A stretch of DNA of 64,000 nt from a bacterium (lineage in GTDB: Bacteria > Hydrothermota > UBA3073 > JACQXS01), in NCBI GenBank assembly GCA_030605695.1, contig JAUWHX010000012.1, positions 31,483-95,482 of the forward strand, read 5' to 3'. Position 1 is the stretch's first letter; every line of letters starts with the position of its first letter. The notes under the pieces are model-generated. The model made no database searches, was not told the origin of the DNA, and saw only the letters and a program-made list of their open reading frames with translations. Of the stretch, positions 728-64,000 are shown piece by piece. The translations under genes and the position numbers were made by a program.

Positions 728-799
728 GCGGGTGTAATTCAGTGGTAGAATGTCAGCTTCCCAAGCTGGACGTCGTGGGTTCGAGTCCCATCGCCCGCT
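728..799 (+). tRNA. tRNA-Gly (anticodon CCC)
   Basis: Cloverleaf read by eye. Acceptor GCGGGTG/CGCCCGC, D-arm ATTC-AGTGGTA-GAAT, anticodon stem TCAGC/GCTGG with loop TTCCCAA, T-arm GTGGG-TTCGAGT-CCCAT. No CCA is encoded. Confidence 0.9.
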
Positions 800-905
800 T
801 GAAATAGGGGTTAGGGTTTAGGAGTTCAAGAGTTGAATTGCAGATTACAAAAAAAGATTAACCACAAAGACACAAAAATTAGAGATTGGAGATTGCAAAT
901 TATGC
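800..905. repeat. degenerate 7-9 bp tandem 'word' repeats in the tRNA-tRNA spacer
   Basis: GGGGTTAGGGTTTAGGAGTTCAAGAGTTGAA..GCAGATTACAAA..CCACAAAGACACAAA..AGAGATTGGAGATTGCAAATT. Each word is immediately followed by a near-copy of itself. Confidence 0.8.
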
Positions 906-941
906 TTGCGGGAGGTTGCTCCTACGAGAGTAGTAATTGCT

Positions 942-1015
942 GGGCACTTGGCGCAGTTGGTTAGCGCGCTTGCTTGACATGCAAGAGGTCAGAGGTTCAA
1001 ATCCTCTAGTGCCCA
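942..1015 (+). tRNA. tRNA-Val (anticodon GAC)
   Basis: Acceptor GGGCACT/AGTGCCC, D-arm GCGC-AGTTGGTTA-GCGC, anticodon stem CTTGC/GCAAG with loop TTGACAT, T-arm AGAGG-TTCAAAT-CCTCT. Confidence 0.9.
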
Positions 1016-1016
1016 G

Positions 1017-5048: not shown

Positions 5049-5291
5049 ATGAGCACAGAATTGCAGATATGTGGCGAGAAAATCACGATAGAAAGTGGTG
5101 TTTCTGTTGAGTATATGAATGATATTGCAGAGTATGTGAATTCTAAATTTGATGAATTGAAGGGGGCTTCAAAGCCTCCACTTGATATTGCGGTTCTTGT
5201 TGCTTTAAATATTGCCGATGAACTTTTTCAGGAACGAGAATTAACTGGACGAGCTGTTAGCATTTTAGAAAAAGAGCTTTTTGACATTTAA
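5049..5291 (+). CDS. zapA: cell division protein ZapA
   Basis: 80 aa. ICGEKITIESGVSVEYMNDIAEYVNSKFDELK...LDIAVLVALNIADELFQ matches the ZapA pattern. Confidence 0.75.
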   Translation: MSTELQICGEKITIESGVSVEYMNDIAEYVNSKFDELKGASKPPLDIAVLVALNIADELFQERELTGRAVSILEKELFDI

Positions 5292-5454
5292 TTTGGTTCC
5301 CTGCAGCGTTTGTGATGGGTTGCGATTCTTGAGCCAGCAACTTTTAAAAGGGAGCTGTCTTGAGTAAACAGACGGTACCCACCTTTTTTTAGGGTTCAAA
5401 GATGTCTTCCTACACGGCACTTGCGGGGAACTTTTTTTAAAAAACCACAAATGG

Positions 5455-5560
5455 CACAAATTAAACGAATAACACGAATAATAAAGTTTCCATCTCAGTT
5501 TGCAGAGTCTGTGAGAGGATAATTCGTGCGATTCGGAACTTTCGTGTAATTCGTGTTTTA
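5455..5560. repeat. tandem word repeats in both orientations upstream of rny
   Basis: AAACGAATAACACGAATAATAAAG at 5463-5486, then the complementary family AATTCGTGCGATTCGGAACTTTCGTGTAATTCGTGTTTT at 5521-5559. Confidence 0.7.
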
Positions 5561-7128: not shown

Positions 7129-7130
7129 TA

Positions 7131-7277
7131 TGAGAATTTCTAAATCCGAAATTCTAAATCCGAAACAAATTCCAATAGTTCAAGCACCAAATCCCAAACA
7201 AAACCATAATGATGTTTGGGAATTGTGATTTGGGATTTAGATATTGTTTAGAATTTAGGGCTTAGAATTTAGGATTT
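7131..7277. repeat. word-repeat spacer with inverted symmetry (rny-ymdB)
   Basis: Left half ATTTCTAAATCCGAAATTCTAAATCCGAAAC...AAATCCCAAACAAAACC. Right half GTTTGGGAATTGTGATTTGGGATTTAGA...TTTAGAATTTAGGGCTTAGAATTTAGGATT. For example AAATCCCAAA (7189-7198) pairs with TTTGGGATTT (7229-7238). Confidence 0.75.
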
Positions 7278-8084: not shown

Positions 8085-8200
8085 GTAGAGAGTAAAGCCA
8101 TAGAAATTCACAGAAAATATTAGAAATTAGTGGAGATTCATAGAAATTTGTCACTCTTGGAATCTGTGACAGACTCTGTACGAGATTCTGCGAACTGTGG
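8085..8200. repeat. tandem word repeats in a convergent spacer
   Basis: CATAGAAATTCACAGAAAATATTAGAAATTAGTGGAGATTCATAGAAATTTGTCAC..GGAATCTGTGACAGACTCTGTACGAGATTCTGCGAACTGTGG. Confidence 0.7.
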
Positions 8201-9265: not shown

Positions 9266-9706
9266 TTACTCTATCTCCTCAATTTTTTCTAATAAGCTAG
9301 GCTTTCTTTTTCTTCCTTTCGCTCCTACAATGTTCACTTTAAGGTTTTCTCCTCCAACAGCTTCAAATCCTATAGTAGTAAAATACTTCGTAGATTTAAG
9401 AGGGTCTGCATAACCCTCTTTTGGCTCGAAAACATATTTTCTTGAGAGCTTTTCGCTCCCCTCCGGATTTTCAACTGTAATTAATACTATAACCCCTTTT
9501 ATATACCAATTCGTGCCATTATATATATTAGCTGTAGCTCTTCCTGAAGAAAAACTTATTTCCTCATTTAATTCTAATTTTGATATTTCCGAATGAGGCA
9601 AATTCCCTTCCTCGTTTTCAGTTTCTACAGTTTTACAACAAATGATAGCCCAGATTATACTTGAAACCACGATCCCGCCAATAAAACCCCAAAAACATTT
9701 CTTCAT
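9266..9706 (-). CDS. hypothetical membrane-anchored protein inserted in the V-ATPase operon
   Basis: 146 aa with one N-terminal TM helix (FWGFIGGIVVSSIIWAIICC). Its ATG overlaps the subunit I stop as ATGA (9706-9703). No family recognised. Confidence 0.5.
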   Translation of the reverse strand: MKKCFWGFIGGIVVSSIIWAIICCKTVETENEEGNLPHSEISKLELNEEISFSSGRATANIYNGTNWYIKGVIVLITVENPEGSEKLSRKYVFEPKEGYADPLKSTKYFTTIGFEAVGGENLKVNIVGAKGRKRKPSLLEKIEEIE

Positions 9707-11685
9707 TCTTGCCCTTCACTCTCCACCAATATATACTTTGCTTTTTTTCTAAAAGGCTCGAACTTTTCTCCACCGCCTTCAAAGAACTTTGTGAAGAATT
9801 CAGCATATTGGAGTCTTAAAGTATGGACATATGCACCGAGAACATTTATTCCAACAGAGAATAAATGTCCACCGATGAAAATAAGTATTCCGAGTACAAT
9901 TCCAATCACAGGAATTTTGCCTACGAGTTCAACAAATATATTTACAGCCATTGCAATCCCTGCTGTTACAAGTCCAAGTGCCATAAGTCTTGAATAAGAA
10001 ATAATATCTGATATAGTGCCCATAAACCCTTGGTAGAAGTTGAATCCTCCCTTTGCGACTCTAAAAAACCAATTTCTTGATGGTCCGCCTGAGCCAAAAA
10101 GGATAAGAACTGTTGAAGCCAATATCACAATGCCACTTATGAGTTTAAAATTCTGTAGTCTGGGCACCTTGAATGAGAATCCGAATATGAGAATGGCTAT
10201 CCAGAAAAAATCCCAGGATAACTTATTTGATATACCTTCAAATACTCTTCCCTGTCGCACTGCTTTTATGAATCCTAAAAAATAACCAAAAGCCACATGC
10301 ACAAACCCAATTCCAAGTGATAGGATAAAGAAAGCAAGTGGTTTCTCCATTGGATTAAATACTTGGACTTTGCGTGCAAAAGTTGAAAAAACTCCTAAAT
10401 TAAATCTTTCTGCCATATCACCACACCATCCTCCTGTTGCGGCTCCTGCAAATATCGTAGCTATTCCACCCGCAAACAAGACCCATAATAATCTTTTATC
10501 GCCCTTAATTTTTCGTGCAAGAAACAAACACATTGCTGCAAATATAAGTCCATAAAGTGCATCCGTGAGGCACAAGGCAAAAAAGAGCACAAAAAAGGGA
10601 GCCAAAAACGGAGAGGGGTCTAATTCCTTCGGATGTGGCGAGGCATAGAGTTCGGTTATGGACTCAAAGATATGTGCCCCTTTCCGATTCTCTAATTCCA
10701 CTGGCATCTCTTCCCCGGGCTCTGGAGTAGCTTTTGATAAACTCGCAGTCTCAAATTGCTCCGTCAACTTTTCCAATGCTTTAAATTGTTTTGCCTTAAT
10801 CCATCCCTCTATACATATCGTGGTTTCAGTGTTTAGAGCGAAATTTTCTACCTTCTTTTGAGAAAGCAGATTTGAATAATAATCAAAAAGTATATGAAGT
10901 TTATTCAACTTTTCCGCAAAGACCTTGGATTCGCGAACAATCCTTGCCTCTCGCGTCTCAAATTCAGTCAATTTTTTCTCAAGTTCCTGAATAATTTCTT
11001 TTGGTTTTCCTTTAAAGTCTCCAAAGTTTACGGCTTCAAACCCTATTTCTGTCAAGAATTTCTTAATATCTTTCTCGTCCTCTTCAAGATAAGAAACCAG
11101 AATATAGGATTTCCTTGCATCCTCACGAACAATTTCAATATCTAATCTTAATTCTCCAGCTTTCTCTTTCCAGTCTGTCGGCGGATTGGCTAATACCCCA
11201 GCACTTGAAATTGCTGACCTCAAGGAACCGATTGCCTCAAGCTCGGTATCCCATTCCTGCCAGGGGAGCAAGGTTTCTCTTTGCAAGCTGACTGCAGTGT
11301 ATTCTCTATTTATCTCTGTAAGCTCATCTTCAAGCTCCTTTACCTTGCTGGCAATATCTAATAATGGCTCTCTGGAAGAAATAACCTCAGTATAAATGGC
11401 TTCGGAGACCACTGTCTTTTGTGGCAAAAAGGCATCTATAAATCCTGCCCCACCATTAAATTTTCTCAAGTAGTCTATTGTCCTTCCAAGCAAAGTGATG
11501 TTATTCTCAATCTCTTTATCTGTTATTTCTTCTTGTGATAGGAGTTCAGGGTAATCTTTAGTTAATTCACTCTCTCGGACATCTTTTATGTGCAAAATTG
11601 CGTTGTCTTGCAATACTTCAAGGAGATTTGCTTTCTCGTCCTGATGCACAGCAATCATCACTTTCTGCATTCTTGCAATACCCAT
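9703..11685 (-). CDS. ntpI: V-type ATP synthase subunit I (a-subunit)
   Basis: Start taken at MGIARMQKVMIAV (ATG 11685); the track ORF extends 14 codons into repeat DNA. Cytoplasmic coiled-coil N-half, multi-TM C-half with ISYSRLMALGLV (stator arginine region). Confidence 0.85.
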   Translation of the reverse strand: MGIARMQKVMIAVHQDEKANLLEVLQDNAILHIKDVRESELTKDYPELLSQEEITDKEIENNITLLGRTIDYLRKFNGGAGFIDAFLPQKTVVSEAIYTEVISSREPLLDIASKVKELEDELTEINREYTAVSLQRETLLPWQEWDTELEAIGSLRSAISSAGVLANPPTDWKEKAGELRLDIEIVREDARKSYILVSYLEEDEKDIKKFLTEIGFEAVNFGDFKGKPKEIIQELEKKLTEFETREARIVRESKVFAEKLNKLHILFDYYSNLLSQKKVENFALNTETTICIEGWIKAKQFKALEKLTEQFETASLSKATPEPGEEMPVELENRKGAHIFESITELYASPHPKELDPSPFLAPFFVLFFALCLTDALYGLIFAAMCLFLARKIKGDKRLLWVLFAGGIATIFAGAATGGWCGDMAERFNLGVFSTFARKVQVFNPMEKPLAFFILSLGIGFVHVAFGYFLGFIKAVRQGRVFEGISNKLSWDFFWIAILIFGFSFKVPRLQNFKLISGIVILASTVLILFGSGGPSRNWFFRVAKGGFNFYQGFMGTISDIISYSRLMALGLVTAGIAMAVNIFVELVGKIPVIGIVLGILIFIGGHLFSVGINVLGAYVHTLRLQYAEFFTKFFEGGGEKFEPFRKKAKYILVESEGQE

Positions 11686-11689
11686 AATT

Positions 11690-11827
11690 TTATAACACAA
11701 ACAACACAAACGGGACGAATACCACAAATTTATTTTTTCTATTCGTGTAATTCGTGTTCATAGGAACTTCTTCAACAGATGACTTCATTTCACCTCGGCG
11801 TCTAAACCCTAATCCCTAAACCCTTTA
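11690..11827. repeat. tandem word repeats including a telomere-like C-strand word
   Basis: ACACAAACAACACAAACGGGACGAATACCACAAATT, ATTCGTGTAATTCGTGTTC, CTAAACCCTAATCCCTAAACCC. Confidence 0.75.
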
Positions 11828-12142
11828 TTAGAGATTCAGAGCTTTTTCAAGAACAAGCGAGACCGCTTCTTTCTTTTTCGTTTCTGCTTGCGTGGTCAAG
11901 GATTCCTTTTCTTTGTGTGCCTCTTTTTTAAGAGCAGATATTTCCTCAAGGGCTTCTTGCTCGGCGTCTTCGGCTACTTTCTCCATAAGAAATTCTCGCC
12001 CTTTCAATGCCTCTTTCAACTTACTTTCTCGCTCAAGCTCTGCTTCTTTTATCTTTTTGCTTTTCTCTTCTCGTGCTTGTTGGATGAGTTCAGATGCCTT
12101 TTTCTCGGTTTCCTTTATGCTTTTTATTAACCCTGTTTCCAT
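11828..12142 (-). CDS. V-type ATPase peripheral-stalk-like small coiled-coil subunit (G/H type, tentative)
   Basis: 104 aa, entirely charged helix (KKASELIQQAREEKSKKIKEAELE...). It is the first gene of the operon upstream of subunit I, the usual position of the small stalk subunit. Confidence 0.5.
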   Translation of the reverse strand: METGLIKSIKETEKKASELIQQAREEKSKKIKEAELERESKLKEALKGREFLMEKVAEDAEQEALEEISALKKEAHKEKESLTTQAETKKKEAVSLVLEKALNL

Positions 12143-12210
12143 CTTTAAAATAGACTAAAGACATAAGACTATAGACAAAAAGTCTCTTGTCTCTGGTCTT
12201 AAGTCTATAG
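12143..12210. repeat. word repeats with inverted symmetry
   Basis: TAGACTAAAGACATAAGACTATAGAC followed by AGTCTCTTGTCTCTGGTCTTAAGTCTATAG. Confidence 0.7.
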
Positions 12211-22591: not shown

Positions 22592-22674
22592 ATTAGAGAA
22601 TTACAAGATAGAAAATTCAAAGATTACAGATTTATCGTCAATCTTTTAATCTTTAATCTTCTAATCTTTGAATT
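22592..22674. repeat. word repeats with inverted symmetry (accB-accC spacer)
   Basis: GAGAATTACAAGATAGAAAATTCAAAGATTACAGATT followed by AATCTTTTAATCTTTAATCTTCTAATCTTTGAATTTT. Confidence 0.75.
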
Positions 22675-31748: not shown

Positions 31749-31761
31749 GTAGGAGCAACTT

Positions 31762-38247: not shown

Positions 38248-38249
38248 TG

Positions 38250-38335
38250 CAAGAAACGAGATTTGTGTTGGTGGTTCGTGTTCGTGGTAGTCTTTTCTGT
38301 GACCACGATTCACGATTCACGAATTAGGAGGATAT
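38250..38335. repeat. heptamer word repeats in both orientations
   Basis: GGTTCGTGTTCGTGG ... CCACGATT CACGATT CACGAAT. Confidence 0.75.
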
Positions 38336-38336
38336 T

Positions 38337-40010: not shown

Positions 40011-40190
40011 TCCCGATCAGGATAGCATTAAACTCTTAAAGCTTTAAACCCTTAATCTGTAATCTACGTTTATCCGCGTCCATCTGTGTTGTCTGCGGTT
40101 CCACTTTCCCCTAAACCCCTGAACCCCTCTTTCTTTGTGCACTTTGTGGTTTAAAATATTATATCTGTAAAATCTGTGGTTGCGGTTTTT
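40011..40190. repeat. tandem word repeats (reverse-complement versions of the 1017-1327 words)
   Basis: AAACTCTTAAAGCTTTAAACCCTTAATCTGTAATCTAC, ATCTGTGTTGTCTGCGGTT, CCCCTAAACCCCTGAACCCCTC, CTTTGTGCACTTTGTGG, ATCTGTAAAATCTGTGGTTGCGG. Confidence 0.8.
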
Positions 40191-44886: not shown

Positions 44887-45122
44887 CATTATTTGAGAGA
44901 GCAAAGAAGATTATTCTCAAATACACAAATATACCTGAAGAACGGATTACACCGGAAGCATCTTTTACCGATGATTTGGGAGTGGACTCATCCGATATTA
45001 CTGGACTCATTATGAATATTGAGGACGAGTTCGGCATCGATATCATTGATACTGTGGAAAGACTCAGGACAGTGGAAGATGTGGTAGAGCATCTCCGTGC
45101 AAGGTTGCCAGGAAATGAATAA
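44883..45122 (+). CDS. acyl carrier protein (copy 1)
   Basis: 79 aa. FTDDLGVDSSDITGLIMNIEDEFGIDI contains the DS phosphopantetheine site. TTG start overlaps the radical-SAM stop as TTGA (44883-44886). Confidence 0.8.
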   Translation: MTLFERAKKIILKYTNIPEERITPEASFTDDLGVDSSDITGLIMNIEDEFGIDIIDTVERLRTVEDVVEHLRARLPGNE

Positions 45123-45152
45123 TCTTAAGTCAAATAATGGGAGGAACAAAAG

Positions 45153-48098: not shown

Positions 48099-48142
48099 GT
48101 TTAAGAAAATCAAGAAACCGCTGTTTATGAGGTAACCAAAAC

Positions 48143-50257
48143 ATGTCAAGAAAAATTTATGCTTTCGTTTTTCTACTAAGTTTTGTAGAATATGCTTTTT
48201 GCCAGAATATTCTGGTTAATCCAGGATTTGAGAACGGAGAGGAAAGCTGGATAGATTTTTCCACTAATCCGGAACATACCGATTTATCAATAGATTATTC
48301 TGTTAGCCATAGTGGGAATGCCAGCGCGAAGATTTATATCAATGATACTTTGGAAGTTAGCGCTGGCTGGTTACAAGGAGTAAATATAATAGCAGGACAT
48401 CACTATCTTTTAGAAGGTTTTATCAAAACTGATAATGTGCAGGGAATGGTCTTTCCGTATCTCCATTTTAGCGATCAATCAGATTCACTTCTTTATGGAA
48501 TGTTACTTATGCCTTTAAATAGAACAACAAATTGGAAATTAACTCAGTCACGATTTATCGCTCCAGAAAACAGCGTAGGATTGGTTTTATTTCTACTCTT
48601 TGTTGGCGAGAAAGGAACGGGATGGTTTGATGACCTCAGTTTAATTGACCTCACAGATACAACCGCTCATCAATTTTCAATCAATTTCAGCGAAACTATC
48701 GGTGAAATCAAACCGTTTTTGGCAACAAACTGTGGGCCAGTGAGACCAGGAAATCCTAATGATCTTACTTCAAAATTCCAAGAGATTGGAATTGATTTTG
48801 TTAGAACTCATGATTACTATGGTCCTTGTGATATACATACTATATTTCCTGATACATCAAGAGATCCCCTTGATTCTACTGCATATTATTTTGCTTCTAC
48901 AGATTCCGTGATAGAACCAATAATCAATGCCGGATGTAATATCCTTTTCAGACTTGGGGAGAGTTGGGAATACGAGCCAATATATAATGTTCCTCCTGCG
49001 GATTTTGAAAAATGGGCACAAGTATGTGTGCAAATAATAAAACACTATAATGATGGGTGGAATAATGGTTATCATTACAATATTGAATATTGGGAGATAT
49101 GGAACGAACCTAATCTTCAGCATCATTGGGATGGCACAGTAGAACAGTACTGCCATCTGTATCATATTACGGCAAATAGAATAAAAGAATACAATCCATC
49201 GTTAAAGGTTGGTGGACCTGCAATAGCATATATCTACAATGCATCATTTATCGAAACTTTTCTTGACTCAGTTGTGACTTACAATATACCTCTGGACTTT
49301 TTTTCCTATCATTTCTATAATTTTGCCAACCCTTTTGATTATTTATATGCTGATAGCGTTATGAAGAAATATCTTGCAGATGCAGGTTTGTCATACGTAG
49401 AAAGGTTTAATACCGAATGGAATACTTATGTATATGATGAGCAGAACTCAATAGATTGGGGGCGGGATGATGCCTTAAATGCCGCATTAACTGTTTCAGC
49501 GATTTCGTATCTTCAAGATTCTGATTTATCAAAAGCGTTTCGTTATCGCACAGATGAATACCTTTTTGGATTATTCAGAGATAATGGAGATTATTCATAT
49601 TCAGGATTGGCGCTTAAGGCAATAGGTGAATTCAGAAAGACTTCTGTCCGTCTCTACACTACAGGAGGTGATAGTATGGGAACGACTATTTTAGCTGGAA
49701 AGTCGCAAACAGATGATAAAATAAATCTATTAATCTCGGATAACTCATCTATTGCAAATGGGTATGAGTTTGTCGTTAATGGATTATTACAAGACAAAAT
49801 TTATAAATATCAGACATATCGCATTGATAACACAATGGAATGGGAATTTTTACAGGAAGGAAATATTACAGATGCTCAAAACATTATAAAGTGTACAGGT
49901 CAATCGCCCTTTGTGGATATAATTTCTATTTCTCAAACCTCTGGTATTGCTGAAGATAATATTAAGTCTATTGTCAATTCTATATATTTATATCCAAATC
50001 CATTCTGCTCAAAAACAAGTTTAGAGTTTAGAGTTCAGGGTTCAGAGTTAAAAGACTTGCAACTCCAGATTTATGATTTAGCAGGTAGACTCGTCCGAAC
50101 ATTGCCAGTTACACAATCACCTAATAACACTATTACCAAAGTAACTTGGGATGCAAAGGATGACTTGGGTAAAAGTGTGTCATCGGGAATCTATTTTTAT
50201 AAATTGAAAGTGGATGATAAGTTTTCACAAACCAAAAAACTGCTACTCTTGAGGTAG
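48143..50257 (+). CDS. secreted clan GH-A-type glycoside-hydrolase-like protein with N-terminal CBM-like domain and T9SS C-terminal domain
   Basis: 704 aa. Signal peptide. NILVNPGFENGEESW (CBM4/9-like jelly roll start). YWEIWNEPN (clan A acid/base NEP motif). C-terminus LYPNPF...LQLQIYDLAGRLV...GIYFYKL...KKLLLLR. Confidence 0.6.
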   Translation: MSRKIYAFVFLLSFVEYAFCQNILVNPGFENGEESWIDFSTNPEHTDLSIDYSVSHSGNASAKIYINDTLEVSAGWLQGVNIIAGHHYLLEGFIKTDNVQGMVFPYLHFSDQSDSLLYGMLLMPLNRTTNWKLTQSRFIAPENSVGLVLFLLFVGEKGTGWFDDLSLIDLTDTTAHQFSINFSETIGEIKPFLATNCGPVRPGNPNDLTSKFQEIGIDFVRTHDYYGPCDIHTIFPDTSRDPLDSTAYYFASTDSVIEPIINAGCNILFRLGESWEYEPIYNVPPADFEKWAQVCVQIIKHYNDGWNNGYHYNIEYWEIWNEPNLQHHWDGTVEQYCHLYHITANRIKEYNPSLKVGGPAIAYIYNASFIETFLDSVVTYNIPLDFFSYHFYNFANPFDYLYADSVMKKYLADAGLSYVERFNTEWNTYVYDEQNSIDWGRDDALNAALTVSAISYLQDSDLSKAFRYRTDEYLFGLFRDNGDYSYSGLALKAIGEFRKTSVRLYTTGGDSMGTTILAGKSQTDDKINLLISDNSSIANGYEFVVNGLLQDKIYKYQTYRIDNTMEWEFLQEGNITDAQNIIKCTGQSPFVDIISISQTSGIAEDNIKSIVNSIYLYPNPFCSKTSLEFRVQGSELKDLQLQIYDLAGRLVRTLPVTQSPNNTITKVTWDAKDDLGKSVSSGIYFYKLKVDDKFSQTKKLLLLR

Positions 50258-50274
50258 CGAAAGGAGATGGTAGT

Positions 50275-51009
50275 ATGAAAGGGCTTTTGGAAATAGGTGT
50301 TGTTCTACTTCTGCCGATTATTCTTTTGGCAGAGACAGGCAACGAAATCTTGAAGAAGGTAGAGGATGCTATGAATGCTCCGAATGATAGAATGGCAAGT
50401 ATGAAGCTCACGCTGATAGATAAGGATGGGGACTCCAAGGTTCGTGAGATAAAAATGTGGCAATTAGGAAAAGAGAAACGACTTATAAAATTCCTTTCTC
50501 CTGCTGATGTAAAAGGAGTTGGATTCTTAGTGCTCTCAGATAACGAGATGTACCTCTATATGCCTGCATTCAAAAAGATAAGACGTATTGCTTCTCATGT
50601 GAAGAATCAAAGTTTTATGGGCACGGATTTTTCTTACAACGATATCGGCAAGAGTCAATATACTAAAGACTTTACCGCTGAGACTAAAGAGGGAACAGAG
50701 AAAGAGTATGTATTGGAACTTACACCCAGGCCAAAATCAGATATTGATTATGCTAAACTTGTTATGCGGGTGGATAAAGCACATTATATTCCGAGCAAGG
50801 TGGAATACTACAACGAGAAAGGGAAAGTTCTCAAGGTTATGGAAAATGAAGATACAGAAAAAATAGATGGCTACTGGACTCCCAAGAAAGTGACAATGAA
50901 GAATCTAAAAACAGAGCATAAGACTGTTATGGAACTTACAGTTGTTAAGCACGACTCTGGGCTTAAAAAAGATATGTTCACTAAACGAATGCTCAAAAGA
51001 GCGGAATAA
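50275..51009 (+). CDS. LolA-like outer-membrane lipoprotein-sorting protein
   Basis: 244 aa. Signal peptide. KLTLIDKDGDSKVREIKMWQ, LIKFLSPADVKGVGFLVL, MYLYMPAFKKIRRI, SFMGTDFSYNDI. This is the pattern I associate with the LolA_like (PF17131-type) family found next to MMPL/HAE3 exporters. Confidence 0.7.
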   Translation: MKGLLEIGVVLLLPIILLAETGNEILKKVEDAMNAPNDRMASMKLTLIDKDGDSKVREIKMWQLGKEKRLIKFLSPADVKGVGFLVLSDNEMYLYMPAFKKIRRIASHVKNQSFMGTDFSYNDIGKSQYTKDFTAETKEGTEKEYVLELTPRPKSDIDYAKLVMRVDKAHYIPSKVEYYNEKGKVLKVMENEDTEKIDGYWTPKKVTMKNLKTEHKTVMELTVVKHDSGLKKDMFTKRMLKRAE

Positions 51010-51085
51010 GACTTAAGAGTTGAGGGTCGAGAGTTTTGGAACAGTATAATCCATACTTCTCTGCTCTTTTAAATAGAGGTGTATA

Positions 51086-52435
51086 ATGACAAAGATTTCT
51101 TTCTGTGTCATCCCTACATTATTAGGGGTGAGTATTGTAAGTAGTCCCAATCTCTGTATGGGTGAAGTGGATATTTCTGGTAATCTCAAACTGGACAAGC
51201 GTTTTCTCATCACAGATAGTGTGAGAATTGCAGATTATCCATATCACGAACTTAATCTAAGACTGCAATCAAAGCCTTCCAAGAATCTATCTCTCTATAC
51301 CAGTATGAAATTTAGGCTATGGGACCAAAATCTTGCAAGTAGTTCAGCGGAGTTGACTGAATTTTCAACTAACAATCCTTATGAACTGTTTCTATGGGAA
51401 GCTTATGCTGACCTTTACAGTTTTATCTTTGATGAATTAGACCTGCGGATTGGCAAACAGCGTATAGCTTGGGGAACAGCAGATAAACTCAACCCGACGG
51501 ATAATCTAAATCCTGATGATTTCTCCGACCCTCTGAATTTCGGGGAAAAGGTGCCTACCGAAGCTGTAAATGCTACCTATAACTTAACCGATGAATATAA
51601 TTTAAGTGCTGTGTGCCTCCCATCGCTCAAGCCTATTTTGTTGCCCAGAGGCGAGTTTCCTTTATTGGGTGATGCAAATGCTCTTCCGTTACCTCCGGGG
51701 ACAAATCTTGTAGAGTCAATGGAGCATCTTACCTTTCCTGACAGGAAGCCTGAAAACTCTATGTATGCCATAAAATTATCTGGAAAGGTCGAGGAGTACG
51801 ACTTTTCACTATCCTATTTTTGGGGTTATGATGATGTGCCTATTGCAAATAAGCTTGTCGTAACTCCTGTTGATACTTTGGGAAATGTGAAACTTGACAC
51901 CTATTTAGGATTTCCAGAAATCCGTGCTGCTGGCTTTGACTGTGCTGGAGAACTTTTTTCCATAGGTCTCTGGGGAGAAGCAGCGGTATTCTTGCCTGAA
52001 GAAGTAAAGATGAGAATAGAAATGCCAACAGGAGTTCAGGATACAACCATTCTATCTGATGAGTCTTATGTGAAGTTCACTGTTGGTGGAGATTATACTT
52101 CTGAGACCGGAATCTATATCAATGCTCAATGGATGCATGGCTTCTTTACTGAGCGGGGAAAAGATAATCTTGAGGACTACATTATGGCAGGTATTGAGCA
52201 GAAATTCAAGAACGATGAGATTAAGGTCGGTGTAGCTGGTGGTTTAGAGATAAAAGATGTTGAGGATTTAGAAGAAAACTACGGCACTGTGATTATCCCT
52301 GAAGTATCTTATGCTCCAACCGATAATGTAAAGCTCCTGTTTGGAGCATTCTTTTTGGATGGAAAGTTAGGGACCCTCTTTGGCGGATGGAAGGAGCAGA
52401 ACCAACTTTACTTCAAGACAGAAGTAAGCTTCTAA
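51086..52435 (+). CDS. outer-membrane beta-barrel protein (DUF1302-like)
   Basis: 449 aa. Signal peptide. LDLRIGKQRIAWGTADKLNPTDNLNPDD. Alternating beta-strand pattern. C-terminal ...YFKTEVSF (terminal Phe). Confidence 0.55.
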   Translation: MTKISFCVIPTLLGVSIVSSPNLCMGEVDISGNLKLDKRFLITDSVRIADYPYHELNLRLQSKPSKNLSLYTSMKFRLWDQNLASSSAELTEFSTNNPYELFLWEAYADLYSFIFDELDLRIGKQRIAWGTADKLNPTDNLNPDDFSDPLNFGEKVPTEAVNATYNLTDEYNLSAVCLPSLKPILLPRGEFPLLGDANALPLPPGTNLVESMEHLTFPDRKPENSMYAIKLSGKVEEYDFSLSYFWGYDDVPIANKLVVTPVDTLGNVKLDTYLGFPEIRAAGFDCAGELFSIGLWGEAAVFLPEEVKMRIEMPTGVQDTTILSDESYVKFTVGGDYTSETGIYINAQWMHGFFTERGKDNLEDYIMAGIEQKFKNDEIKVGVAGGLEIKDVEDLEENYGTVIIPEVSYAPTDNVKLLFGAFFLDGKLGTLFGGWKEQNQLYFKTEVSF

Positions 52436-52458
52436 AGTAACGAATTGAAGTTAGGATA

Positions 52459-53577
52459 ATGTGGAAGAAACAGGTTATTTTTTCAATTCTATGCTTAACA
52501 TTTTTCTCAAGGGGGTTTGCTGGCACTGAAAAAGCTCCTCTTCTTGAGGGTGCCTATTGGGGGCTGGAAACAGGAGCCAGACCTTTCGCAATGGGAGGGG
52601 CATTTGTTGCTGTCGGTGGCGACGCTAGTTGTATTTACTGGAATCCAGCTGGATTGGGATTACTTCCTCAATCAACAGCAATGTTCGGCTTCAGCGATAT
52701 GAAGGATATAGAGGTTGAGAATATGGAGGTCGTAAATCTCTTTAGAACAGCGACAGGACTGAGTGGTAAGAGATTGTCATTTGTTGCATTTTCAGAAAAT
52801 CAGGGAGCTTTAAGCTGGTGTCCACTATCAAGTGTATGTAGAAACAATATGTATTTTCAGAACATCAATGCGGATGGAGATACGATTGAGAGATGGACAG
52901 ACCTAGAATACAGCATAAACGAATTTGTTCTATCAATGACCACGCTTATGGGAGCCACCGACCAAGAAATCCAGGGAATGCCTTGTATTCTGGGGATGAA
53001 TGTCAAATACCTGAATGGCAGGATAGGAGTTGCAGAAAAAAGTAGAAAAAATGGAGTGTGGGAAGAACCAAATATAAATCTGGATACTGGTAATGGGTAT
53101 AGCATAGACCTTGGTTTCTTATATCCGAAAAAGTGGATTGCTCTTGGTGCCTCAGCACAGAATGTTCTGGCAAAACTATACTGGCACGATTATAGTGCAG
53201 ACCGAATAAATGCGAATTTGCGAGGCGGTATAGCTATAAAACTTTTTAATAGTCTCCTTTTAGCTTCAGATGTTGAAAAAAGGTGGGATGAGAAAGCCCC
53301 TTACATTTATCATATTGGAGTAGAGAAAACATTCATACGAGGGAAAAAGCAAAGAAGCAATTTTGGCACCAAAGATAAGCAATCATTGAAATACGGAGAC
53401 CTCTCAATCCGACTCGGTACTTATGGTACAGATTTATTGGAGGAAGAGAAAATCTACACAGGGGGAATTGGTTACAGTTATTCTAATTATAGGGTAGATA
53501 CATCTGTGTCAGGAAAATATGAAGGGAAGGATTCCAAGCTCTCATTCCGGCTGACAATCTCAGTGCCATTTGAATAA
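52459..53577 (+). CDS. outer-membrane beta-barrel protein (PorV/FadL/TraF-like N-terminal motif)
   Basis: 372 aa. Signal peptide. GARPFAMGGAFVAVGGDASCIYWNPAGLG. Beta-rich. Confidence 0.5.
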   Translation: MWKKQVIFSILCLTFFSRGFAGTEKAPLLEGAYWGLETGARPFAMGGAFVAVGGDASCIYWNPAGLGLLPQSTAMFGFSDMKDIEVENMEVVNLFRTATGLSGKRLSFVAFSENQGALSWCPLSSVCRNNMYFQNINADGDTIERWTDLEYSINEFVLSMTTLMGATDQEIQGMPCILGMNVKYLNGRIGVAEKSRKNGVWEEPNINLDTGNGYSIDLGFLYPKKWIALGASAQNVLAKLYWHDYSADRINANLRGGIAIKLFNSLLLASDVEKRWDEKAPYIYHIGVEKTFIRGKKQRSNFGTKDKQSLKYGDLSIRLGTYGTDLLEEEKIYTGGIGYSYSNYRVDTSVSGKYEGKDSKLSFRLTISVPFE

Positions 53578-53653
53578 TATGTAGTATCTTTAAATGATGG
53601 TTACAATATTTGAGTAAATGAGCAGGGAAAAATATAAGAAAATAGGAGGAGAG

Positions 53654-54058
53654 ATGAAAAAGTTTTACATAATTTTGGTCGGGCTTTTGGTATTTGCTGG
53701 CTGCAAGGATGTGCAAGAGGAAATTGAGCAGTGCACCGTGTCTGGAAAGGTTACAAATGGAGGACAGGCTTTAGCCAATACTTATGTCCTGCTCTTGAAA
53801 TCAAAGGAGGGCGATATTAACTTAAGCAACGGCTGGAAGGCAGGAGACGATGGGACTTATAAGATAATAAGAGTTGACCCTTCTGTCTATTATGTAACAG
53901 TAATAGCAGATACTAACGGTAATATTGCCTATGAACCTGATAAGGATTTGATAGGATGGTATGACCCAGATGATGATCTTGAGCCTGATTCAATTGTAGT
54001 AAACGAGGGAGACGACCTCACAGGCATAGACATTGACACACTATATATTGCACCATAG
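53654..54058 (+). CDS. small lipoprotein with carboxypeptidase-regulatory-like fold (tentative)
   Basis: Start at MKKFYIILVGLLVFAGCKD (lipobox FAGC), with AGGAGG upstream. CTVSGKVTNGGQALANTYVLL. Confidence 0.5.
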   Translation: MKKFYIILVGLLVFAGCKDVQEEIEQCTVSGKVTNGGQALANTYVLLLKSKEGDINLSNGWKAGDDGTYKIIRVDPSVYYVTVIADTNGNIAYEPDKDLIGWYDPDDDLEPDSIVVNEGDDLTGIDIDTLYIAP

Positions 54059-54078
54059 ATATTGAAAAAAGGAGGTGC

Positions 54079-54180
54079 ATGGGTATATTTGAGAAAATAG
54101 TTTCAGCGATAGTAATCGCTTTTGAATGGCTCGGCAGAAAGATACAAGAAATCATTGACATTATGCTGTTCAGGAGATAA
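54079..54180 (+). CDS. 33-codon small ORF with strong Shine-Dalgarno (possible small membrane protein or leader)
   Basis: AAAGGAGGTGC then ATG at 54079. MGIFEKIVSAIVIAFEWLGRKIQEIIDIMLFRR*. Below the track size cutoff. Confidence 0.3.
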   Translation: MGIFEKIVSAIVIAFEWLGRKIQEIIDIMLFRR

Positions 54181-54793
54181 GAAGTTTGTGAAGCACCAAA
54201 ATAGCAAATCAGCTTTTTATTATACAGTTTGTCTGGCCACTCGGATAATCCTTACAATATTTTACTCATTAAAGGTAAGAGGGGCAGAGAATATTTTAGG
54301 CAAAGGGGCTTACATTATTGCAGCAAATCATATCAATTGGCTTGACGGTTTTGTGTTAGTTGCTTTATTTAAGGAGAAAATTACCTTTTTGTCTGCATCC
54401 TATCTGTTTGAAAGACCAATAGTTAGAAGAGCATTCCTATCCAGACTGGGGTGTATTCCAGTTGGTCAGGCACAAACGAGAAAAGCGATTAAAGAAGCCT
54501 TGAATATATTAGAAAAGGGAGGAATAATAGGAATTTTCCCCGAGGGTGGTGTAAGGTTAACAAAAGAGATGCAGGAAATCAAGCGAGGAGCTTTCTTTCT
54601 TGCCCATACAGCAAATGTTCCCATTGTTCCAGTGGGTATTCAAGGAACTAATCATATCTTCTCATTATCTCGTAAAATTCCTCGTCCCGGTGGGATAACT
54701 GTTAATATTGGAAAGCCAATTTATTGTAAAGAAACCGACAGGGAGACTAATGAGATTATTGTTGCTAAAATTACTGAACTTGTGAAGAATTAA
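54122..54793 (+). CDS. PlsC-type (LPLAT) acyltransferase, copy 1
   Basis: IIAANHINWLDGF (HX4D), GIFPEGG, PIVPVGIQG. The track start is TTG 54122. GTG 54188, preceded by AGGAG, is a more likely start. Confidence 0.75.
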   Translation: MNGSAERYKKSLTLCCSGDKKFVKHQNSKSAFYYTVCLATRIILTIFYSLKVRGAENILGKGAYIIAANHINWLDGFVLVALFKEKITFLSASYLFERPIVRRAFLSRLGCIPVGQAQTRKAIKEALNILEKGGIIGIFPEGGVRLTKEMQEIKRGAFFLAHTANVPIVPVGIQGTNHIFSLSRKIPRPGGITVNIGKPIYCKETDRETNEIIVAKITELVKN

Positions 54794-60634: not shown

Positions 60635-60808
60635 CTTTTAAAATCTACTTCTACAAAAACATTCCGTCAACATTTTTTATCCAAGAACCCGAAACCTTTT
60701 TTAAACCACAGAGGGCACAGAGAAATAGATTGAGTTCAAAGGGAAAAAAGTGAAACCCCAAAAGGTAAAGTGCTTGACATTTTGGCTTTATTCCCTATGG
60801 TCTGACAG

Positions 60809-61210
60809 ATGGGAATTTTCATATTTCTTGTCTTGCTCGCCGAGCCATCAGATTCTTTTATACAAGGTGGGTTGAAGCCCTCGCTTCAACCTAATGAGTC
60901 CATCGTGGGGAAGAAATATAGCGGGCAGACACATATATCTGCCCCAGCAACAGATAGATGGATTGGGCGTGATAAGTTTCATCACTTTTCTTATTCGCTT
61001 GGGATTACAGGACTTTCATACCACGTTTATCATTGCCAGTTTAATAACCCAAATCCAGAGGCAAGATATTTTTCTATCTCCCTTACGGCAGTAGCGGGAA
61101 TTTCAAAAGAGTTTTATGATAAGTTTTATAAAAAAAGCAGTTTCTCTTATAAAGACCTTGTCTGGAATGCAGTTGGCATAACAGTTGGCAGTCTTTTGTT
61201 CTTGAGATAA
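60809..61210 (+). CDS. hypothetical protein (DUF2279/YfiM-like, tentative)
   Basis: 133 aa. DRWIGRDKFHHFSYSLGITGLSY...YKDLVWNAVGITVGSLLF. Confidence 0.4.
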   Translation: MGIFIFLVLLAEPSDSFIQGGLKPSLQPNESIVGKKYSGQTHISAPATDRWIGRDKFHHFSYSLGITGLSYHVYHCQFNNPNPEARYFSISLTAVAGISKEFYDKFYKKSSFSYKDLVWNAVGITVGSLLFLR

Positions 61211-61299
61211 ACGAGAAGAAGAAAAATGAATCACAGAGAACACAAAGAAATATTTTTATTTTACTCTGTGGTCTTTGTGCCCTTTGTGGTTAAAATTAA
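61211..61299. repeat. word repeats with inverted symmetry
   Basis: AATCACAGAGAACACAAAGAAA ... CTCTGTGGTCTTTGTGCCCTTTGTGG. Confidence 0.7.
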
Positions 61300-63702
61300 A
61301 TGGAGCATATTTTCCCGCATATTAGAAAACCCTTAAGGTATATAGGAAACGAGATTGGGGCAGTGCATAAAGATTGGAACCAAACTCCTGTTAAATTTGC
61401 TCTCTCCTATCCGGACTTGTATGAACTTGGGATGAGTTGCCTTGGGATAAGAATAATCTACTCGCTCTTAAATTCAAGGGATGACACACTTTGCGAGCGA
61501 GTCTTTGCCCCAGCTCTTGACCTTGAAGAAGCTCTACTTAAGACAAACACTCCTCTCTTTTCTATGGAATCAGGAACTCCATTAAAGAAATTTGATTGCA
61601 TTGGCTTTTCTCTGCAATACGAACTTACATTTACCAATGTCTTAAATATACTAAAACTCTCGCAAGTCCCTATTCATAGAGAAGAGCGAGGCGAGACTGA
61701 CCCTCTTATTATTGCTGGTGGGAGTTGCACCTCAAATCCAGCACCAATAGCAAGGTTTTTTGACTGCCTCTTCGTAGGAGAAGCTGAACATTCGTTGCCA
61801 AAATTTATAGACCTTGTGCGAGAGTGGAAAAGCAAAAAACTAACTCGGCAGGAGCTACTTAAAGAAGCATCCCGGATACGAGGAATCTTTGTTCCCTGGA
61901 TTAGCAAAAATGCGACTCGTGGCTTTTGTGAGGAGCTACAGAATGATTCTGTCATCGGCGGGGCAATTCTCCCTTTTGTAGAAATTACGCGTGATTCTCT
62001 TGTAGTTGAAATTGCAAGGGGATGCACTCGTGGATGCAGATTCTGTCAAGCAGGTATGATTTCAAGACCTTACAAGGAAAGGCAAGCAAAGTCTGTGATA
62101 GAGCTTGTTAAGGCAGGAATCAAGGAGACGGGTTATAGTACTGCCTCGCTTCTTTCTCTTTCTGCAAGTGACCACTCTGAGCTTATCCCAATAATTCAGG
62201 GAATTCGCAGACAGGGTATAGGAGTTTCACTTCCTTCACTTCGTGGAGATGCACTAACGGCTGAGCTTGCAAAACTGATAGGAAAAGGCGGAATAACTAT
62301 TGCTCCTGAAACTGGGACCGAGAGGTTAAGAGAAAAAATCAACAAGCCGATATCTGATGATGAAATCTTAAATTCCTGTGAGCTTGCGGCTCGTTATGGG
62401 TTTACTCATATCAAGTTATATTACATAATTGGGCTACCGGGAGAAACACAGCAAGATATAGATGGAATAGTGAACCTCACCCACCGCATCTCAAAAGCAA
62501 TGAAAGGAAGGCGAGTAAATGCATCTCTTTCTCCTTTTGTTCCAAGACCCCATACGCCGTTTCAATGGGAAGCCCAAGAAAGAGACGAGGAAGTGGAACA
62601 CAAAATAAAATATATCAAGAACAAGCTCCGACATGGAAATATAAGAGTAAAACACAGAAATCCCTTGATGGCTATGCTTGAAGGAATATTCGCAAGAGGA
62701 GATGAGAAAATAGCAGGAGCAATAGAAGTGGCGTGGGAAAATGGAGCAAAGTTTGATGGATGGGGCGACCAGTTTAACTTTAATCTATGGGAAGAAGTGT
62801 TTCAAAAGCTTGGAATAAATCCTTCCGCTTATTTAGGCAGGCGAGAGATAAATTCTCCTCTCTCGTGGGATTTGATAGATGTGGGAGTCAAAAAAGACTG
62901 GCTAAAGGAGGAAGGGCAGAAACAGGAACCAACTTTAGATTGCCGAATTATAGGGTGTTATAAGTGTGGAGCTTGTAAGTCTCCTAATCCTGTGCCTATG
63001 CATAGGGGTGAGGTTTTTTTGACCTCGCCCTCATTCACAGAATCCGATGGACGGGATATAAGCTATGGAAGACCCCCAAAACGCAAAACATCAACTTATG
63101 TTAAGTTAAGATTTAGAGTAAGGTTTGAGAAAACAGAGCCCTTGAGATTCCTGGGGCATCTTGACCTTGTGAAGACAATCACCCGAGCATTCAGGAGAGC
63201 CGATATTCCAATTGTATATTCTCAAGGATTCACCAGGCGACCCAGCATTTCATTTTCTCCACCACTTCCGTTTGGGATAACGAGTAAGGAAGAATATTTT
63301 GACATCTGGCTTGAATCACCTCCCCGCGAGGACATTAAGCTCTTGCTCAACCAAACTCTCCCCGTTGGACTTAAGGCATTACAGGTAACTTCAATATTAA
63401 AAAGCACTCCTTCTTTGTTTGAGGAGCTCAAGAAATGTAAATACAGGATAGCCGATATAAGTGTGTCAGATGTCTTGAAAAGAATACAAGAATTTATGGC
63501 GAAGAAGGAAGTGTTGGTGCGGGATGTAAACATCCGCCCTGCGGTGATTGATATAGAGGAAGAAACGGCATTCGCAAACAGGAGTTTGCTTCTACATATG
63601 CAAATTGGGAAAGCAAAGCCCTTGTGGGTTGTTGAAGCATTACTTGGAATCTCTGAGGATAAAGCACTGGAGTTTAAAATAGAGAGGATTGAGTATTGCT
63701 GA
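61300..63702 (+). CDS. B12-binding-domain radical SAM protein fused to a DUF2344-type domain (TIGR03960/TIGR03936-like fusion)
   Basis: 800 aa. N-terminal B12-like Rossmann region. ARGCTRGCRFCQAGM (CX3CX2C). C-terminal third VRFEKTEPLRFLGHLDLVKTITRAFRRADIPIVYSQGF. Confidence 0.75.
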   Translation: MEHIFPHIRKPLRYIGNEIGAVHKDWNQTPVKFALSYPDLYELGMSCLGIRIIYSLLNSRDDTLCERVFAPALDLEEALLKTNTPLFSMESGTPLKKFDCIGFSLQYELTFTNVLNILKLSQVPIHREERGETDPLIIAGGSCTSNPAPIARFFDCLFVGEAEHSLPKFIDLVREWKSKKLTRQELLKEASRIRGIFVPWISKNATRGFCEELQNDSVIGGAILPFVEITRDSLVVEIARGCTRGCRFCQAGMISRPYKERQAKSVIELVKAGIKETGYSTASLLSLSASDHSELIPIIQGIRRQGIGVSLPSLRGDALTAELAKLIGKGGITIAPETGTERLREKINKPISDDEILNSCELAARYGFTHIKLYYIIGLPGETQQDIDGIVNLTHRISKAMKGRRVNASLSPFVPRPHTPFQWEAQERDEEVEHKIKYIKNKLRHGNIRVKHRNPLMAMLEGIFARGDEKIAGAIEVAWENGAKFDGWGDQFNFNLWEEVFQKLGINPSAYLGRREINSPLSWDLIDVGVKKDWLKEEGQKQEPTLDCRIIGCYKCGACKSPNPVPMHRGEVFLTSPSFTESDGRDISYGRPPKRKTSTYVKLRFRVRFEKTEPLRFLGHLDLVKTITRAFRRADIPIVYSQGFTRRPSISFSPPLPFGITSKEEYFDIWLESPPREDIKLLLNQTLPVGLKALQVTSILKSTPSLFEELKKCKYRIADISVSDVLKRIQEFMAKKEVLVRDVNIRPAVIDIEEETAFANRSLLLHMQIGKAKPLWVVEALLGISEDKALEFKIERIEYC

Positions 63703-64000
63703 TTCCAGGTAATACATTAATTTTTGGAACCACAGATAAACGCTGATGCGCGCAGATATAGATTAACCACAAAGGGCACAAAGAAATACAAATTACACGA
63801 AAAAGATTAGTACACAGATTCACCCCGTTTCCGTGCGGAACGGGGTTCACACAGATTAAAAAGATAATCACAGAATGGGCTGATGGGTTAAGAGTTCAAA
63901 GGGTTTAAAGGTTCAAAGGGCTAGGAGTTTAAGGGTTTAAAGGGTTAGGGGGTTAGAGTTTTTCGGGTTTGGGGTCGCGGGTCATCAGGTCTCGTATCCC
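63703..64000. repeat. tandem word repeats ending in a G-tract-rich block
   Basis: CCACAGATAAACGCTGATGCGCGCAGATATAG, CCACAAAGGGCACAAAGAAATACAAATTACACG, hairpin CCCCGTT-TCCGTGCGG-AACGGGG, then GGGTTAAGAGTTCAAAGGGTTTAAAGGTTCAAAGGGCTAGGAGTTTAAGGGTTTAAAGGGTTAGGGGGTTAGAG..GGGTTTGGGGTCGCGGGTC. Confidence 0.8.

Follow-up and report, generated by a model that had tools for sequence, protein, structure and literature searches.

The 64,000-nt stretch of DNA analyzed here (hereafter, the window) corresponds to C81:31483-95482, part of one contig of the draft genome G000 (1.98 Mb in 93 contigs, ~39% G+C, 84% complete), and many of its intergenic spacers are occupied by arrays of short, degenerate words. 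The ThrRS protein of G000 is 65% identical to that of a "Candidatus Stahlbacteria" metagenome-assembled genome (MAG) and 78% identical to that of another MAG, and further relatives are labelled candidate division WOR-3. Genes in G000 were called crudely, as greedy non-overlapping open reading frames (ORFs) of at least 80 aa (90.6% coding), leaving 895 internal spacers with a minimum length of 40 bp, which together span 166 kb. For comparison we used G001 (~92% identical, independently assembled), G002 (an outgroup of the same genus) and CSMAG_437 (same genus). Strict tandem pairs were defined as a 7–9 bp unit with an adjoining copy carrying at most one mismatch, low-complexity units being left out.

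Strict pairs cover 9.1% of the intergenic bases of G000, compared to 2.45 ± 0.10% in dinucleotide shuffles and 2.7% of coding DNA, so that the words are enriched genome-wide over both shuffled composition and genes. In the window, coverage is 10.9% of non-coding and 2.7% of coding bases. The initial annotation had reported word repeats in nearly every spacer; the observation is real but overstated, since a strict pair is found in about half of the spacers (in the window, 17 of the 33 that measure 40 bp or more; genome-wide, 46% vs 23% in shuffles). Spacer autocorrelation is raised at lags 7–9 (0.300–0.307 vs 0.281 in dinucleotide shuffles) with harmonics at 15–17 and 24, whereas coding DNA shows a 3-bp signal alone. 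Individual words, such as CACAGA and the 7-mers and 8-mers ACACAGA, CACAAAG, AAGGGTT, ACACGAA, AACACGAA and TTAACCAC, are 6–18x more frequent in intergenic than in coding DNA. Dispersed matches to another spacer were found for 347 of the 895 spacers and involve 25% of intergenic bases. In control loci from other phyla, strict pairs reach just 2.8% (1.6% in shuffles), indicating that the excess is specific to the G000 lineage, and G001 carries the same kind of repeat at 12.8% strict-pair coverage.

Most of the individual blocks that had been pointed out in the window contain period 7–9 arrays according to Tandem Repeats Finder (TRF), which lie at 805-826, 1051-1095, 1161-1201, 1275-1315, 7134-7165, 7247-7277, 11694-11711, 11802-11824, 12150-12176, 22594-22673, 38304-38322, 40024-40055, 40108-40128 and 63890-63949. 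All 14 blocks exceed mononucleotide shuffles in a relaxed tandem measure, but two of them (51010-51040 and 60640-60770) lack a strict pair, and the relaxed signal is weak at 8085-8200 and 60640-60770. Between tRNA-Gly and tRNA-Val, the one-orientation block at 800-905 (TAGGGGT x3, CCACAAAGACACAAAA, AGATTGGAGATTGC; TRF 805-826, period 7) has 89 of its 106 bases in relaxed tandem matches, compared to 20.7 in shuffles. At 1017-1327 there is a 310-bp composite array, also in one orientation and made of arms without an inverted partner (hereafter, solo arms), with CACAAAGA x3, AGATTAC x3.4, CCGCAGATAAACACAGAG and RGRGTTYAA runs at 1161-1201 and 1275-1315 (191 relaxed tandem bases vs 57.7 shuffled); its 1040-1160 segment folds at just -0.97 kcal/mol (z +0.68). 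Other solo arms occupy 40011-40160 on the pyrimidine strand (TTAAACCC x3.5, TCTGTAATC, CCCCTAAA, CTTTGTG x2; z +0.34, unstructured), followed by a TTGACT promoter at ~40184, and 63703-63952 on the purine strand (CCACAGATAAAC, CGCAGAT, AACCACAAAGGGCACAAAGA), where they are followed by an RGRGTTYAA 8-mer array at 63890-63949 (142 relaxed tandem bases in 63703-64000 vs 32.4 shuffled). Pyrimidine-strand words are also found at 11728-11827 (TTCGTGTAATTCGTG, CTAAACC x3.3).

Five window blocks are inverted and fold well, with z from -2.3 to -5.3. The 118-nt CACGAAT-type hairpin at 5440-5557 (CCACAAATGGCACAAAT, ACGAATAACACGAAT ... ATTCGTGCGATTCGG, TTCGTGTAATTCGTG; -27.4 kcal/mol, z -2.31) is situated precisely between the 3' end of the 6S RNA and the ribosome-binding site of rny. 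The 6S (SsrS) RNA itself lies on the + strand at 5295-5433 (Rfam RF00013, 71.8 bits), after a ZapA-like 80-aa ORF (5049-5291), and the hairpin begins 6 nt beyond it. A 149-nt hairpin at 7129-7277, 3' of rny, has arm words TTCTAAATCC and GGATTTAGAA (-37.6 kcal/mol, z -3.58; TRF 7134-7165 and 7247-7277). The 68-nt hairpin at 12143-12210 joins ATAGACT and AGTCTAT words (-24.6 kcal/mol, z -5.25) and no shuffle folds as well; in the 83-nt hairpin at 22592-22674, AGATTACAGATT pairs with AATCTTTT x4.4 (z -3.80; TRF 22640-22673). The CACAAAG hairpin at 61211-61299 has its purine arm first (CACAGAGAACACAAAGA ... TCTTTGTGCCCTTTGTGGTTAA; z -2.79), and the block at 38248-38336 has the reverse arm order (TTCGTG x2 ... 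CACGATT x2.7; z -1.74). Two spacers are weaker: a convergent one at 8085-8200 with ATAGAAATT and CACAGAA words then TCTGTG words (z -0.36; relaxed coverage 30 vs 15.5 shuffled), and a divergent one at 60635-60808 with two core words only (CCACAGAGGGCACAGAGA), a TTGACA promoter and no strict pair (relaxed coverage 38 vs 22.8). No Rfam family matched inside the word blocks.

Across the genome, two kinds of repeats were recognized, namely phased modules and one-orientation RGRGTTYAA 8-mer arrays. The main core of the modules, C[AG]C[AG][AG]A[GTA], covers CACAGAG, CACAAAG, CACGAAT, CGCAGAG and CACAGAT, with CGCAGAT also among the core examples, and reaches 8.2 per kb in spacers compared to ~1.2 per kb per strand in genes; at least three core words are present in 24% of the spacers of at least 60 bp. 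Distances between neighboring cores on the same strand are 8 bp (n=88), 9 bp (n=192) or 10 bp (n=99), with none at 7 bp and two at 11 bp, indicating that the unit is a fixed core plus a short variable filler. A module comprises 2–4 phased copies of the 6–7 nt core, often starting with AACCAC or GCCAC and often preceded by TTAA. Most word blocks are inverted arrays of paired modules, a feature that the initial annotation had not noted, in which a purine arm, a loop and a pyrimidine arm form AT-rich hairpins of 60–150 nt whose ends are often TTAACCRC...GYGGTTAA. A DnaA-box reading of TTAACCACA was rejected by inspection, because the likeness is confined to the first word of the module and hundreds of copies are spread across spacers.

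Purine-first inverted word arrays were found in 119 spacers. Among spacers with at least three core words, purine-arm-first outnumbers the reverse order by 92:14 between co-directional genes, 12:1 between convergent genes and 15:5 between divergent genes. As this arm order is identical when read from either strand, it reflects a fixed architecture, not the direction of transcription. The minimum free energy falls below z = -2 relative to dinucleotide shuffles in 35% of co-directional, 45% of convergent and 26% of divergent spacers, and the best-folding spacers are long imperfect hairpins with word arrays as arms, some of them nested. Solo arms, such as those at 1017-1327, at 40011-40160 and in a 596-bp spacer on contig C8, are essentially unstructured as RNA. 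Spacers with words on one strand alone are divided into 15 purine-strand and 18 pyrimidine-strand cases, without preference relative to transcription. The RGRGTTYAA class comprises 19 arrays with a maximum of 17 copies, and a higher-order period of 16 bp is frequent among them. In these arrays (window 63890-63949; C64:2900-3040 and C8:8350-8520 in G000), GGG recurs at 8-bp intervals, so that G-quadruplexes could form. The G-rich strand is in most cases antisense to the neighboring genes, but this bias is not significant (8 vs 2).

Inverted word arms of the same kind also enclose small genes, a link that the initial annotation had missed, as it had the turnover of whole elements between relatives. 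Both tblastn and a hidden Markov model search identified eight GxxExxY loci in G000; the family (PF13366) has a PD-(D/E)XK nuclease fold (Pfam 7.7e-43). Six of these genes (L159-L162, L165), together with a PF05635 gene (L163), lie between inverted arms of 19–47 nt that are 74–90% complementary, 365–515 nt apart and in purine-first order. A PHP-domain gene (L164) lies between 42-nt arms 798 nt apart, again with the purine arm first, and a seventh GxxExxY gene (on C49, L166) has 41-nt arms (78% complementary) in reverse order. Overall, seven of the eight GxxExxY loci are flanked by inverted arms on both sides. The cassette with the PF05635 gene, C64:8506-8930, has 30-nt arms, 90% complementary, around a four-helix-bundle (23S_rRNA_IVP) gene (PF05635, 8e-32). 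The word differs from cassette to cassette (CGCAGAG, CGCAGAT, CACGAAT, CACGAAA/CACTAAG, AGCATTTAGTAG or GGGAAAA), and the GxxExxY paralogues are only 23–59% identical to each other; their identity matrix does not clearly follow the type of arm word. The catalytic D and E are kept in all GxxExxY sequences aligned and the K in eight of nine; the copy on C1, which lacks arms, retains neither the E of GxxExxY nor the K. Arm homology between gene-bearing and gene-less forms is extensive in one family: the arms of the cassette on C82 recur at 28 sites, ten of which are gene-less hairpins, with copies on C57, C8 and C27. In the window, the arms of the 5440-5557 hairpin match those of the GxxExxY cassette on C44 at 84%.

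A different family of hairpins surrounds the sole Y1_Tnp gene, which is RAYT-like (G000 C61:17260-17580, - strand, L119). Both of its flanks carry GGGACTnGGAAGTCCC-TCCCACAG hairpins, another of which lies at C57:23147-23230; they constitute a separate REP-like family with further copies in the genome. As this only Y1_Tnp gene carries different hairpins, RAYT was rejected as the mobiliser of the word elements. No transposase-bearing parent element was found either: the G001-specific spacer inserts of ~1.8 and 1.9 kb are ordinary genes encoding an outer-membrane-like protein and a type IX secretion system (T9SS) repeat protein.

Word elements differ between close relatives at precise positions. 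G000 and G001 were aligned over 220 kb, with a divergence of 6.0% in coding DNA and 8.5% in spacers; among 85 spacers with both flanks aligned, 48 aligned over at least 99% of their length and 11 over less than 75%. The 5440-5557 hairpin is precisely absent from G001, with TTTTA at both sides, and between the same boundaries G002 has a different hairpin of ~85 nt. Of the 7129-7277 hairpin, G001 conserves the left arm alone, and the hairpin is absent from G002. In G001, the loop of the CACAAAG hairpin contains, at 61240-61272, an extra palindromic element of ~80 nt (GATTAAATAAAATGCCACGAAATCACC...) that matches the arms of the C82 GxxExxY cassette. At the C82 junction itself, the cassette of G000 is replaced in G001 by a 98-nt CACAGAT hairpin with identical boundaries. 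Similarly, the spacer at 11685-11842 has a different hairpin (AAATACCTAAA type) in G001, the spacer at 38243-38322 has a different hairpin of ~100 nt (CACAAAG type, purine arm first), and the solo arms at 40011-40160 differ by a 16-nt (two-unit) and a 12-nt indel. The aligned part of the convergent spacer (8104-8174) is identical in G001, and at the site of 1017-1327, CSMAG_437 has a 153-aa ORF and no arrays. Three blocks (84, 172 and 314 nt) are found in G000 but not in G001. These three-genome junction comparisons demonstrate polymorphism at the level of sites, not transposition.

Repeats of this type are widespread in the phylum. When related MAGs were compared, as the initial annotation had suggested, relatives across the class had the same kind of arrays with partly different words (e.g., GTTGACA, AATGTTA, TAGTTGAT, GTATCAGA and AGGAAGT). 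The triple CACAGA-N1-5-CACAGA-N1-5-CRCAGA is present in 45 of 151 WOR-3 genomes (24 of 76 genera; up to 58 per genome), whereas the reversed-pattern control matched three genomes. GxxExxY genes occur in 81 of the 151 genomes, and their frequency is 38 of 45 where the triple is present and 43 of 106 where it is absent (odds ratio 8.0, p = 8e-7, uncorrected for phylogeny). In the distant WOR-3 genome G071, a CACAGAG module stands on both sides of a 136-aa GxxExxY gene (TIGR04256, 5.5e-44) and also adjoins a four-helix-bundle gene (TIGR02436, 3.1e-26; NCBIfam), and in G035 each of two GxxExxY genes begins ~35 nt past a CACAGAG module on one side. The exact 24-nt pattern CACAGAGACACAGAGNNCACAGAG (22 specified bases) was found on 47 predicted viral stretches of IMG/VR, including L197 (IMGVR_UViG_3300009838_001161), and one of these stretches, a phage-like contig of high G+C, carries three copies of the pattern and a terminase-like ORF, showing that the module is not confined to WOR-3. 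Full-text literature searches returned no description of such repeats in WOR-3, and the earlier suggestion of a multi-family system of short intergenic repeats, STRR-like and without prior description in this kind of organism, holds. ORF calls in other WOR-3 genomes (L167:189-611, L145) traverse CACAGAG modules, giving N-terminal HRGTENTE or HRDTENTE peptides; the annotated starts of cassette genes may thus lie too far upstream.

We propose that most of the words are building blocks of a population of small hairpin repeats that exists in gene-bearing and far commoner gene-less forms, an interpretation to which we assign a probability of roughly 0.55. Because inverted modules of the same kind bracket small genes in G000, the gene-less hairpins are read as counterparts of the cassettes. 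Under this proposal, two to four phased core copies would make an arm, and two inverted arms, purine first, a hairpin element; between close relatives, elements would be gained or lost, become nested in one another's loops or be replaced at exact junctions; and solo arms and long RGRGTTYAA arrays would represent products of decay or expansion. Each nuclease paralogue may recognise a set of phased words of its own when the DNA is single-stranded or folded into a hairpin, and this activity together with host repair or recombination may spread or maintain the elements.

Several results weigh against this interpretation. The G000-only blocks lack near-identical full-length copies in other places and match at the level of modules alone (35–154 nt at 79–97% identity), and the 172-nt block resembles the outcome of a deletion between repeated words. 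For the blocks that distinguish G000 from G001, recent copy-and-paste is therefore not demonstrated, and one of the two lineages may instead have undergone deletion. One candidate target duplication was observed (TTTTA, at 5440/5557) and none at C57:21961. Many clear gene-less homologues exist for the C82-type family alone, the arms of other cassettes having 3–13 matches, and neither the long single-orientation arrays nor the RGRGTTYAA runs are explained by a hairpin element. The odds ratio for co-occurrence of the triple with GxxExxY genes ignores phylogeny. A sequence search found no homologue with a solved structure, no enzymatic evidence is known for any GxxExxY protein, and full-text literature searches returned almost nothing on this family. 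Finally, the sense strand of whole spacers has a slight folding advantage over the antisense strand (-21.7 vs -20.1 kcal/mol, p = 7e-5). This difference hints at some RNA-level function; transcription-linked mutation bias is another possible cause.

In one rival explanation, the arrays arise by slipped-strand duplication. If the words were microsatellites like those called STRR in cyanobacteria, 7–9 bp units would duplicate in a lineage-specific manner wherever selection allows, chiefly in spacers, and the hairpins and cassettes would be incidental. Period 7 is indeed the commonest in a crude array scan (417 of 1280), perfect heptamer runs occur in window ORFs, the RGRGTTYAA arrays reach 17 copies with their 16-bp higher-order period, and the 84-nt array is present in G000 only. 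In addition, indels per kb are 11x more frequent in spacers than in genes between G000 and G001, with a small bump at 7 nt (n=15). However, cores in the main modules are spaced 8–10 bp apart and never 7 bp, as a fixed core with variable filler and not as identical head-to-tail units, and the modules are inverted. None of the intergenic indels of 7–18 nt between G000 and G001 passed a neighbour-unit copy test, although gap placement in poorly aligned spacers may hide some, so that the indels are not clean changes of unit number. Nor would slippage be expected to give the two arms a fixed order, and the 25-nt triple module is kept across WOR-3 families whose ThrRS identity is only ~50–55%. The view of the words as heptamer microsatellites does not stand for the main core, and slippage is an unlikely general explanation; it likely lies behind the RGRGTTYAA arrays and possibly contributes elsewhere.

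The hairpins could also be selected RNA structures, i.e., non-canonical terminators or stabilisers of 3' ends against exonucleases that replace missing classical terminators. The initial annotation had proposed roles in transcription, termination or nucleoid structure, and these received little support, although its remark that promoters abut the blocks was borne out: CTTGACA is 8x enriched in spacers, and a -35 box at 40180-40190 follows directly after the last word. Classical terminator-like sites are no commoner than chance (15 vs 15.3 expected in the first 20 kb of the window; 31 on the sense and 43 on the antisense strand in 653 co-directional spacers), hairpins start at a median of 11 nt past the upstream stop codon, in some cases a T run and, after it, a promoter lie downstream of the hairpin (e.g., 40150-40190), and the better folding of the sense strand points the same way. 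Against this, the long hairpins have 34% G+C and no enrichment of U downstream (T 0.34 vs A 0.37), and Rho is present in G000. Core words are nearly as dense between divergent genes (6.6 per kb) as between co-directional (8.6) and convergent (8.4) ones, and 26% of divergent spacers still fold below z = -2. Canonical intrinsic terminators were rejected on these grounds, as there is neither a G+C-rich stem with a U-tract nor a depletion between divergent genes, and classical sites are at chance level. In the G000–G001 comparison there was no signal of selection for pairing: orthologous hairpins are no stabler than randomly mutated ones, and 25 of 31 substitutions fall in paired positions (10 hairpins and 31 substitutions were usable, which makes the test underpowered). 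Elements are also absent or swapped between close relatives while the flanking genes are unchanged. A selected RNA hairpin is thus an improbable basis for the population as a whole; effects on transcript ends, as terminators or stabilisers, are possible as a secondary contribution.

If the words were arrays of binding sites for a host nucleoid-associated protein or global regulator, small genes would merely land among them. The 8–10 bp phasing and the phylum-wide CACAGA core resemble recognition sites, and words show no orientation preference relative to transcription (15 vs 18 spacers). This explanation is quite unlikely, given that no candidate protein was identified, that there are many cores per genome and the vocabulary shifts between families, that a phasing of 8–9 bp misses a single helix face, and that the sites are dispensable between close relatives. 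Assembly artefacts, a concern for a 93-contig MAG that is 84% complete, found no support and can practically be dismissed, because the independent assembly G001 has the same spacers and words at ~92% identity (48 of 85 orthologous spacers aligning over at least 99%) and the same modules occur in related genomes across the phylum.

Known systems provide close parallels to the hairpin-repeat population proposed here. Short tandem heptanucleotide units occupy spacers of heterocystous cyanobacteria, where they constitute several families (STRR1-3) with a lineage-restricted vocabulary. In Beggiatoaceae, TAACTGA heptamer repeats are direct, form one family and lie just upstream of start codons, with a single inverted case (MacGregor 2015, PMC4679880). 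The G000 words share with these the short tandem spacer units, and the several families and lineage-restricted words, but their main core is phased at 8–10 bp with degenerate filler in mostly inverted arrays, whereas the other repeats are exact 7-mers. The host also differs (WOR-3 / Stahlbacteria-like), as do the words, and period-7 arrays exist in G000 without being the dominant core. Intervening sequences (IVS) of 23S rRNA consist of a long stem, with an optional small S23p / 23S_rRNA_IVP ORF in the loop, in rRNA helices, and are excised by RNase III. The C64 cassette likewise is a long stem with a PF05635 ORF in its loop, but it is located in an intergenic spacer and not in an rRNA helix. 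Miniature inverted-repeat transposable elements (MITEs), such as the Correia elements of Neisseria, are small, intergenic, bounded by terminal inverted repeats and differ in presence or absence between relatives, all of which applies to the word elements. Unlike MITEs, the word elements have no identified relative that carries a transposase, none of the cassette genes encodes one, at most a single target duplication was observed, and copies are old and diverged (70–90% identity) without near-identical bursts.

Two further systems combine hairpin repeats with a small gene. REPIN/RAYT systems have over-represented short extragenic repeats that form hairpins as inverted doublets, with several sequence groups per genome, and a small gene flanked by repeats that are also dispersed in gene-less form, and their solo copies decay (Bertels & Rainey 2011, PMC3116915). 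Each of these features (extragenic location, inverted doublets, multiple groups, a flanked gene and decaying solos) has its counterpart in G000. However, the flanked genes are PF13366 GxxExxY or PF05635 four-helix-bundle genes, compared to the Y1 HUH transposase of RAYT, and arms are arrays of phased words ending in TTAACCRC or GCCAC, compared to the single 20-nt palindrome beginning with GTAG of REP. In the NTS/SRM system, hundreds of hairpin repeats accompany the Ssn GIY-YIG single-strand nuclease, the gene of which is flanked by repeats on both sides, and, across phyla, repeats abound where the gene is present (Chenal et al. 2025, PMC11893778). Hundreds of hairpins, a small nuclease-fold gene flanked by the repeat and co-occurrence of repeat and gene are common to both, but the fold is PD-(D/E)XK in place of GIY-YIG, and the repeat is modular and multi-word, with several diverged paralogues (23–59% identical) each having its own arm words, in a system known from sequence alone. 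The repeats look like an undescribed cousin of the REPIN/RAYT or NTS/Ssn systems rather than simple slippage repeats.

A bolder possibility, which we raise only tentatively, is that GxxExxY proteins and, in parallel, the IVS-type four-helix-bundle proteins are the sequence readers of an unrecognised class of hairpin elements whose ends are phased arrays of 8–10 bp words. Each paralogue would have its own word, and precise insertion, excision or replacement would take place at hairpin loops and gene junctions without a transposase. Gene-less copies of the elements would account for roughly a quarter of the intergenic DNA of many WOR-3 bacteria and would also be present in other phyla and on phage-like contigs. 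If correct, this would account for much of the non-coding DNA of an uncultured phylum and provide a first testable role for two large families of unknown function, GxxExxY/PF13366 and 23S_rRNA_IVP/PF05635. Were each nuclease to read its own word, the paralogues would be a naturally occurring series of programmable-looking nucleases with specificity for DNA that is single-stranded or in hairpin form, parallel to the Ssn family (2025). For genome annotation, word hairpins mark hot spots of element and gene turnover between close relatives, and direct evidence should be required before they are labelled as terminators or phase-variation microsatellites.

Other differences and repeats were noted beside the word elements. 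G001 lacks the ORF at 9266-9706 (window 9267-9719), and the region 44874-54786 is largely unmatched in the first 20 kb of G001 contig C35, with short pieces (44879-45141 and 49991-50251) aligning out of order or to another contig; gene content thus differs between these 92%-identical relatives. A tandem array of 21/42/63 bp with 6.8 copies of CAAGCGAAATGTTCACTATGT lies at window 31553-31752, where G001 lacks a stretch of ~300 nt and has 48 nt instead. The perfect heptamer runs within window ORFs are CCCGAAC x4.7 (38978-39010), AACACCG x3.3 (39224-39246) and CAGTCCA x3.4 (41376-41399). In addition, 31 G+C-rich palindromes, GTAGGGG(N6-40)CCCCTAC, are distributed genome-wide (e.g., C37:8065, C17:8383 and C57:23107) and form a small family unrelated to the words.

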